From a virus (taxonomy: Duplodnaviria; Caudoviricetes): a stretch of 64,000 bases of DNA. How positions within the stretch are numbered: position 1 is the stretch's first letter; every line of letters starts with the position of its first letter. Shown here one piece after another: positions 8,576 through 8,821 of the stretch. A program made the translations under genes and the position numbers. The notes beneath the pieces were generated by a model that was not told the origin of the DNA, did no database searches, and was given only the letters and a program-made list of their open reading frames with translations. The stretch is from IMG/VR virus record IMGVR_UViG_3300044295_000092, positions 2,019-66,018 of that record; one strand, 5' to 3'.

Positions 8576-8600
8576 TTAGCAACTGGCTACGTACTACTAA

Positions 8601-8630
8601 GGGGCTTGCTTAAAACGCAGGCCCTTTTTT
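8601..8630 (+). terminator. Rho-independent terminator after the MCP
   Basis: GGGCTTGC-ttaaaac-GCAGGCCC followed by TTTTTT. Confidence 0.8.
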
Positions 8631-8670
8631 CATGGTTTTACGTAAGAATTAAATGCAAAAAAGTAATATA

Positions 8671-8699
8671 TTGACAACTGTATACATTGGGTATACAAA
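8671..8699 (+). promoter_or_regulatory. Putative sigma70 promoter for pqqA with overlapping palindromic operator
   Basis: TTGACA (8671-8676), 17 nt, TACAAA (8694-8699). Perfect inverted repeat TGTATAC-N5-GTATACA at 8679-8697. Confidence 0.6.
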
Positions 8700-8716
8700 A
8701 ATTTAAGGAGAATATT

Positions 8717-8794
8717 ATGAAAGCATGGACAAAACCAGCAGCAACTGAAATGAGATTTGGCTTTGAAGTTACTATGTACGTGATGAATAAGTAA
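8717..8794 (+). CDS. pqqA: Pyrroloquinoline quinone precursor peptide PqqA ([25 protein letters not shown])
   Basis: Hand translation gives the PqqA signature W-x-x-P...R-x-G-F-E-V-T-x-Y with E-x3-Y (E17/Y21). SD TAAGGAG lies 6 nt upstream and there is a double TAA stop. Confidence 0.95.
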   Translation: [25 protein letters not shown]

Positions 8795-8800
8795 TAAATT

Positions 8801-8821
8801 AGGGGCTTCGGCCCCTTTTTT
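8801..8821 (+). terminator. Rho-independent terminator after pqqA
   Basis: AGGGGC-TTCG-GCCCCT followed by a T-tract (cUUCGg tetraloop). Confidence 0.9.

Follow-up and report, generated by a model that had tools for sequence, protein, structure and literature searches.

The stretch of viral DNA analysed here (64,000 nt, hereafter the window) comprises bases 2019-66018 of the 66,018-bp IMG/VR virus record IMGVR_UViG_3300044295_000092, for which CheckV gives a completeness estimate of 100%. Behind the major capsid protein gene the window carries a 25-codon gene, pqqA, for the precursor peptide of the cofactor pyrroloquinoline quinone (PQQ). Each PQQ consumes one PqqA. Judged from its sequence and distribution, the gene is probably an auxiliary metabolic gene, by which the phage would supply this consumable precursor to the PqqBCDE enzymes of its host. 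This phage pqqA adds one example to a known kind: viral copies have been in the literature since 2020 and occur widely, with at least 119 IMG/VR contigs carrying one.

The reading frame is absent from the list of open reading frames (ORFs) made for the window and had been proposed as pqqA in an earlier note on this DNA. The assignment was confirmed with two profiles: PF08042 (Pfam PqqA) matched the peptide with an E value of 5.5e-11 and 42.6 bits (cut-off 21.1) over profile positions 1-19 of 19, and TIGR02107 (NCBIfam equivalog) matched with 40 bits (cut-off 20) over positions 1-21 of 21, both scores being about twice the curated cut-off. PQQ arises from the cross-linked Glu and Tyr of the E-x3-Y motif of PqqA, and the phage peptide keeps both residues at this spacing (E17-V-T-M-Y21). 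The 25-codon frame is a genuine pqqA, and a chance ORF is ruled out. The peptide agrees with the commonest Methylophilaceae PqqA at all 22 positions of W4-K25; it starts with MKA-W and is two residues longer than the host copies with their usual M-W start. The Shine-Dalgarno (SD) sequence that had been claimed for the gene is present as AAGGAG 6 nt 5′ of the ATG, and with 25 codons the gene fits a very short ribosomal peptide that has translation signals of its own. A single pqqA was found in the 66,018-bp record.

No pqqB, pqqC, pqqD or pqqE was found in the whole record by profile search and tblastn, and the absence of these genes noted earlier for the window is thereby extended to the full record. 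As the control for TIGR02111 (pqqC family) matched nowhere, tblastn with PqqB-E from the bacterial-type locus L008 (described below) was added. The best E value of these queries against the phage record was 0.61, and as a control the L008 PqqB and PqqC queries found pqqB and pqqC in Methylophilaceae loci at 52-65% identity. A PQQ-dependent alcohol dehydrogenase was not found in the phage either. Since pqqB-E are absent from the phage, processing of the peptide would have to take place in trans by the host; this absence lowers the case for a self-sufficient PQQ system, not the identity of PqqA. The proposed course of events is that host RNA polymerase would transcribe the cassette during infection of a Methylophilaceae methylotroph, and that host PqqD/PqqE, PqqB and PqqC would bind the phage peptide and process it into PQQ, as would be expected from the identity of W4-K25 to the host peptide. 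The phage copy would thus keep the precursor supply, PQQ-dependent methanol dehydrogenase and the energy yield going as host expression declines, because each PQQ uses up one peptide and the host's demand for pqqA message is far greater than that for the messages of the enzymes. In the read counts taken from one report on the methanotroph Methylosinus trichosporium, pqqA reached 11,857/13,927 reads and pqqB-E 161-372 (PMC3615186).

For the comparison with bacteria one genome per prokaryote species was scanned with a back-translated pattern of the exact 10-residue core of the peptide, the counts being lower bounds. At least 126 stretches encode this core and yielded 130 peptides of 37 kinds. 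By record title these belong overwhelmingly to Methylophilaceae, Methylophaga, Methylococcaceae or unclassified metagenome-assembled genomes (MAGs; Burkholderiales, Betaproteobacteria, Pseudomonadota), in agreement with the expectation of the earlier note that the closest homologues lie in methylotrophs; the exceptions include an ‘Acidovorax caeni’ MAG (two stretches) and a Rhodocyclaceae MAG (one stretch). A host form of 23 residues occurs at at least 21 loci, with titles including Methylophilus, Methylotenera and Methylophilaceae MAGs, and matches the phage peptide at 22 of 22 positions over W4-K25. The T6 variant (MWTTPAATE...) was found at at least 44 loci, including all three copies of Ca. 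Methylopumilus universalis, and matches at 21 of 22. Methylophaga forms match at 14-15 and Methylococcaceae-type forms (MKWETP.../MRWEKP...) at 13-14 of 25 aligned positions. These comparisons support a host in the Methylophilaceae, at the level of the family only and not of the genus: of the Methylopumilus/Methylotenera-type host that had been suggested, the family is supported by the 22/22 form, and this support does not extend to the genus; Ca. Methylopumilus universalis has the T6 variant.

Within the family, pqqA was present in all 121 genomes searched, with 1-12 matches each, and 118 of them had 2-12, which bears out the earlier statement that methylotrophs often carry several pqqA copies. 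Many copies were seen in some genomes (one Methylotenera MAG with loci L033, L034, L080 and L082; genome G059 with 12 matches), sometimes with two within 1 kb. When positions 1-20000 of the window were compared with the same 121 genomes, 117 had a match, and all 150 matches listed (69 further matches were obtained) fall in 8691-8802, with nucleotide identities of 77-91%. Among the matches listed, pqqA is the sole host-like DNA in this part of the window. Twelve host copies were inspected (L334-L345); all end in a terminator, and nine have no pqqB or pqqC within about 1.5 kb.

Other viral copies were collected by a scan of IMG/VR with a pattern of the exact core, which yielded at least 119 stretches and itself imposes the constancy of the core. 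Each of the 119 copies listed has an intact ORF with an ATG start, an SD-like word is present at -16 to -4 in 118, and 42 kinds of peptide are encoded. The entropy at codon positions 1, 2 and 3 is 0.24, 0.20 and 0.85, and outside the core 17,770 synonymous and 13,732 non-synonymous pairwise codon differences were counted. The intact ORFs, the SD sequences, the variation at third positions and the recurrence in unrelated phages point to purifying selection on the peptide. The two commonest forms, which account for 45 of the 119 copies, are fully identical to host peptides, start included. No pqqB-E were found in the fetched flanks of the 119 loci (up to 2 kb, and less in the 39 loci past the first 80), and the capsid type of this phage occurs in the flanks of 16. 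A count of lineages by clustering of the flanks was unusable, single linkage having chained 94 of the loci into one cluster.

Among 50,697 GenBank phage records, 12 were matched in a tblastn search: Venkman, P19250A, MEP301, MEP401, MEP402, four Melnitz records, one uncultured Caudoviricetes sp. (MW202481) and two records named ‘Acinetobacter phage’. One of the latter, ‘Acinetobacter phage MD-2021a’ (L008, CAKLQF020000010.1, 144 kb), has ppk and pqqBCDE beside pqqA and was rejected as a phage pqqA, the record being chromosomal or mislabelled; the second match under the same name (CAKLQH020000055.1, 13 kb) is listed by name and match only. The genuine phage matches among these records are restricted to Methylophilales/Methylophilaceae phages and one uncultured phage. 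In MT375522, KX815270, MW452941, OP830906, MZ577097 and MW202481 (L002-L007) pqqA is unannotated, and in MW202481 and Melnitz a ‘hypothetical protein’ is annotated across it on the opposite strand. The NCBI taxonomy names MEP431-434, HIM624-A, phiMB624-A, Venkman EXVC038S, MG-MTP1 and RSA-MFP1 did not turn up in the searches of phage records, so pqqA cannot be claimed for every cultured methylophage.

Contigs from metatranscriptomes (four runs from four studies: X19, X20, X22 and X24) match the pqqA locus only over 8726-8794 and differ in the flanks, one of them reading ...AGGAGAAATACTATG directly 5′ of the W codon; relatives of the capsid gene are covered by such contigs at 85-99% likeness. 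The pqqA contigs of these RNA libraries are other copies of the gene, from hosts or other phages, and speak neither for nor against transcription of the present cassette. Most of the stretch was recovered only in runs of one sample labelled freshwater; as this sample may be its source, it lends no independent support to a habitat.

The position of the gene was compared with that in related phages. Close relatives of the capsid protein are encoded on at least 600 IMG/VR contigs, and the 80 best matches have 84-95% identity to it. The slot behind the capsid gene was defined by a conserved leader RNA downstream of it, which a covariance model finds in 58 of these 80 relatives. The slot is empty in 40 of the 58, with 28-135 nt from the capsid stop codon to the leader RNA; five carry pqqA (298-708 nt) and 13 carry other DNA (684-1128 nt; L140, L150, L159, L161, L166, L169, L177, L190, L195, L196, L200, L206, L208). 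This comparison of presence and absence at the locus had been proposed as a check in the earlier note. Among the other cargo are genes of the GIY-YIG/NUMOD3 (L208) and Endonuclease VII (L206) types, and seven of the nine cargo ORFs scanned gave no Pfam family. When counted among the 62 close relatives with at least 900 nt past the capsid gene, pqqA stands behind the capsid gene in five. Alignment with the empty sites delimits an insertion of about 225 nt in the window and in L135, which comprises the upstream terminator, the promoter region and pqqA. By this alignment the pqqA cassette has the structure of a moron in an insertion hot spot behind the capsid gene.

The features of the locus are compiled in Table 1. 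Both intrinsic terminators said to bracket pqqA are supported by folding against shuffled sequences; the upstream one was missed by a simple scan and found only in this way. Its presence in the window and in L135, with a single terminator instead in the empty-site relatives, identifies it by alignment as having arrived with the cassette. The downstream terminator aligns with the lone CTTCGG-loop terminator of the empty-site relatives and is, by this alignment, the ancestral terminator of the capsid gene. The upstream terminator was rejected as a universal part of such cassettes, being present in only 21 of 115 viral copies; a downstream terminator was found by a crude rule in 48 of 116. Due to the terminators between the capsid gene, pqqA and the next gene, these belong to separate transcription units, and of the ‘capsid operon’ to which pqqA had been assigned, the place behind the capsid gene stands and the operon wording is loose.

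The TTGACA promoter ascribed to the cassette was not upheld. The hexamer is present; however, it was not called by the promoter scan. At a spacing of 17 nt the best -10 candidate is TACAAA (8694-8699), a hexamer without the final T from which transcription would begin within the SD sequence, and TTGACA is missing at the corresponding position in the closest relatives (L253/L135 and L238). In related cassettes a TTCATG(A/G)TTTT-like motif is repeatedly followed, about 25 nt further on, by a CATAAT-type -10 and then by a short hairpin, the SD sequence and pqqA. In the window, TAATAT sits just 5′ of the hairpin of the 5′ untranslated region (5′-UTR), as do CATAAT/TATAAT in the relatives (by eye), and a -10-like hexamer lies within -100 to -30 in 79 of 116 viral pqqA loci. 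The upstream motif with TAATAT is, on this comparison, more likely to be the promoter of the cassette than TTGACA. The layout of a moron that had been described therefore stands with respect to the empty-site relatives and the terminators on both sides, and its own promoter is a predicted one (TAATAT and the upstream motif). The inverted repeat in the leader is a candidate 5′-UTR hairpin or operator; it folds with -6.4 kcal/mol (z -1.3) and is weak alone, and viral and host cassettes have a hairpin of other sequence in this place (by eye, uncounted).

Table 1. Features of the pqqA cassette and its surroundings (positions in the window).
Feature	Position	Strand	Remarks
Major capsid protein gene, 304 aa	7661-8575	+	PHROG 371 major head protein, E 3.6e-22
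Upstream intrinsic terminator	hairpin 8599-8627, T-run 8625-8630	+	-17.8 kcal/mol, z -3.26 against shuffles
TTCATGGTTTT, host-like upstream motif (ATG[AG]TTTT)	8629-8639	+	85 nt before ATG
TAATAT, candidate -10 of cassette promoter	8664-8669	+	position of CATAAT/TATAAT of relatives, by eye
TTGACA hexamer named by the earlier note	8671-8676	+	probably not a -35
Inverted repeat TGTATAC-N5-GTATACA, 7 bp	8679-8697 (arms 8679-8685 and 8691-8697)	+	pqqA leader
Shine-Dalgarno sequence AAGGAG	8705-8710	+	6 nt before ATG
pqqA, 25 codons and stop	8717-8794	+	ATG 8717, TAA 8792-8794; cross-link residues E17 and Y21
Downstream intrinsic terminator	hairpin 8801-8816, T-run 8816-8821	+	-15.7 kcal/mol, z -3.05 against shuffles
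Promoter-like site TTGTAA-16-TATTAT, TG before -10	8834-8861	+	promoter scan; next transcription unit
Conserved pseudoknotted leader RNA	8870-8942	+	marks 3′ edge of insertion slot; outside pqqA
Helix Pa	5′ strand 8870-8874, 3′ strand 8896-8900		
Helix P2	5′ strand 8881-8890, 3′ strand 8916-8925		
Helix Pb	5′ strand 8892-8894, 3′ strand 8901-8903		
Helix P3	5′ strand 8907-8913, 3′ strand 8931-8937		abuts Shine-Dalgarno sequence
Next gene, 160 aa	8951-9433	+	no family match

The upstream motif is shared by host and viral copies. ATG[AG]TTTT, counted in either orientation in the region -150 to -60 of pqqA, was present in 49 of 121 host loci (control regions 8/116 and 2/123; usual position -130 to -110) and in 54 of 116 viral loci (L215-L333; control regions 5/115 and 1/112; usual position -90 to -80). 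Several of the 12 inspected host copies have it as an inverted repeat (TTCATGA-N17-TCATGAA). This distribution suggests a regulator site that was carried over with pqqA. It is possible, though rather doubtful, that the pqqA cassette is a small mobile unit which moves among unrelated methylotroph phages together with a host control region, ATG[AG]TTTT being the site of a host regulator. If so, the phage copy would be wired into the methylotrophy/PQQ regulon of the host and switched by its metabolic state, pqqA would be a reliable host marker for Methylophilaceae phages, and its gain in a lineage with Pelagibacter-infecting cultured relatives would mark a host jump.

Several points weigh against a role in supplying precursor to the host pathway. 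The host is predicted from pqqA alone, and the closest cultured phages infect Pelagibacter. The presence of the gene in only five of 62 close relatives makes it dispensable for this phage type, the promoter of the cassette appears weak, and, given the stability of PQQ and methanol dehydrogenase, additional precursor may be of little weight within one latent period. Moreover, the MKA-W start is absent from all 37 bacterial variants listed, and processing of this form is assumed. The low frequency among close relatives would also fit a neutral or selfish passenger, that is, host DNA caught in a recombination-prone slot and persisting for a while without benefit to the phage, as would the hot spot itself with its 13 relatives carrying other cargo such as the two endonuclease-type genes (GIY-YIG/NUMOD3 and Endonuclease VII). 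Such a passenger is unlikely in view of the 119 viral copies that are all intact, 118 of them with an SD sequence, of the variation at third codon positions far above that at the first and second, and of the recurrence in the unrelated phages Venkman, P19250A, MEP301, MEP401/402, Melnitz and the present type in differing contexts.

The N-terminal MKA extension and the lack of any pathway enzyme in the phage could also be read as signs of interference, in which the peptide would titrate PqqD/PqqE or a regulator and lower or re-time host PQQ, or would have a role unrelated to PQQ. This is very unlikely, as a peptide identical to the host substrate over W4-K25 should be processed alike by the host enzymes, and many viral copies (e.g. 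45 of 119) are wholly identical to host peptides. A role at the level of the DNA, with the host-like stretch of about 100 nt providing the homology through which the phage could recombine with or integrate at one of the host pqqA loci, as phages do with tRNA genes, would explain why every one of the 150 listed matches (69 more were obtained) of window positions 1-20000 to 117 of 121 host genomes lies in 8691-8802, and the hosts do offer several dispersed copies. It is nevertheless hardly to be expected: none of the window ORFs scanned matched an integrase or recombinase family, the identity to the host is only 77-91%, and the differences are concentrated at third codon positions, a sign that selection acts on the protein and not on identity of the DNA. 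The full ORF with its start codon is, in addition, always kept, with an SD sequence in 118 of 119 copies. The supply of precursor to host PqqBCDE thus probably describes the function of the phage gene.

The carrier is a complete 66-kb HTVC023P-like phage, lytic-looking. It encodes a terminase large subunit (TerL), a portal protein, a GroES-like protein, the major capsid protein, a holin and virion proteins, and on the opposite strand a DUF927 primase-helicase, an SNF2 helicase, a PD-(D/E)XK nuclease and a family A DNA polymerase; no tRNAs were found in the phage. Viral genes flank pqqA on both sides, with TerL, portal and capsid genes upstream and structural, lysis and replication genes downstream. 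The nearest cultured phages by amino acid identity of TerL are DSL-LC04 (52%), 023Pt_psg01 (51%) and the Pelagibacter phages HTVC027P (49%) and HTVC023P (48%), and the capsid gene has about 66% nucleotide identity to those of HTVC023P/027P. Elsewhere on the minus strand, an AAA_5 ATPase gene (56368-57414) adjoins a gene for a DUF2201 metallopeptidase/VWA protein (55063-56217), the two forming a MoxR/CobS-CobT-like pair (55063-57414). Two giant ORFs on the plus strand (15673-22389, 2238 aa; 33008-40567, 2519 aa) have almost no family match, the sole one of the pair being an endolysin-like stretch at residues 769-921 of the second.

The leader RNA that marks the 3′ edge of the slot belongs to the next gene. 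In its predicted fold, helix Pa crosses P2 and Pb, and P2 crosses P3, which makes it a multiple pseudoknot. In an alignment of 19 sequences, evaluated for Pa, P2 and P3 only, 93.3% of the cells are paired compared with 28-40.5% in slid controls, and 13 of 22 pairs show changes on both sides, a level reached by none of 500 shuffles. With 59 sequences Pa is paired in 93.8% and Pb in 100% of the cells; P2 is paired in 96.6%, in an alignment that had been fitted to this helix, and the columns of P3 are misaligned. A terminator-like local hairpin called by the scan at 8870-8882 is, with 82%, less well supported than the pseudoknot. The -10-like word of the upstream promoter-like site is conserved at the 5′ edge of the leader alignment. 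Rfam gave no match at gathering scores in the window (two matches in 8500-9050 are at chance level, E 0.15 and 0.57), and blastn of the leader RNA against GenBank phages gave none. The leader RNA may control translation of ORF 8951-9433.

If the precursor is indeed supplied in this way, a 78-nt gene for a consumable cofactor precursor would be a means for a phage to support an energy pathway of its host. The gene is moreover a practical host marker, the genuine phage matches among the 50,697 records being Methylophilales/Methylophilaceae phages and one uncultured phage, and as gene callers miss it, viral metabolic genes are probably undercounted in waters rich in methylotrophs. The details that are new here are the resolved insertion slot and the adjacent leader RNA without known family only. 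The suspicion in the earlier note that viral pqqA had already been reported proved right: Coutinho et al. (2020, Microbiome 8:163; PMC7678222) describe PqqA on a Lake Baikal viral genome, population VP_266. As in the present case, a PQQ precursor gene is carried by an uncultured freshwater virus with a predicted methylotroph host and is proposed as an auxiliary metabolic gene for methanol oxidation. Unlike this phage, which has neither a methanol dehydrogenase gene nor another pqq gene, VP_266 is reported there with a methanol dehydrogenase gene. Beyond that report, the insertion site and the anatomy of the cassette were resolved here and the 25-codon MKA-W form was found. Apart from PMC7678222, full-text term searches found no paper linking phage pqqA to methylotrophs; in a paper of 2026 (PMC13188868) viral pqqA, pqqD and pqqE appear in a list of phosphorus-cycling genes, and term searches of the isolate papers of Venkman, Melnitz, MEP301 and MEP401/402 (PMC8163748, PMC9004378, PMC8024684, PMC10580990) found no mention of a pqq gene.

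The cultured Methylophilales/Methylophilaceae phages and MW202481 resemble this phage in carrying an orphan pqqA, of 23-24 codons with ATG and SD sequence and 77-100% identical over W4-K25; no pqqB-E are annotated in the fetched flanks of about 3 kb. They differ in that their phage types are unrelated to the present one, with pqqA located among replication genes, at the genome end or between tRNAs, and they have no DNA in common with the window besides pqqA. The dispersed chromosomal pqqA copies of Methylophilaceae are similar in their near-identical peptide, their organization as small terminator-ended units (12/12), the ATG[AG]TTTT motif and their location away from pqqB (9/12). In contrast to the phage cassette, the motif of the host copies lies further upstream (-130 to -110 compared with -90 to -80), the peptide starts with MW instead of MKAW, and pqqBCDE are present elsewhere in the host. 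A further parallel is offered by cyanophage psbA, a phage copy of the gene for the fast-turnover photosystem II protein D1, whose role during infection is backed by experiment. The two cases involve unrelated proteins, pathways and hosts; the likeness is an analogy in principle, the phage encoding a consumable part in high demand while the host keeps the stable machinery.

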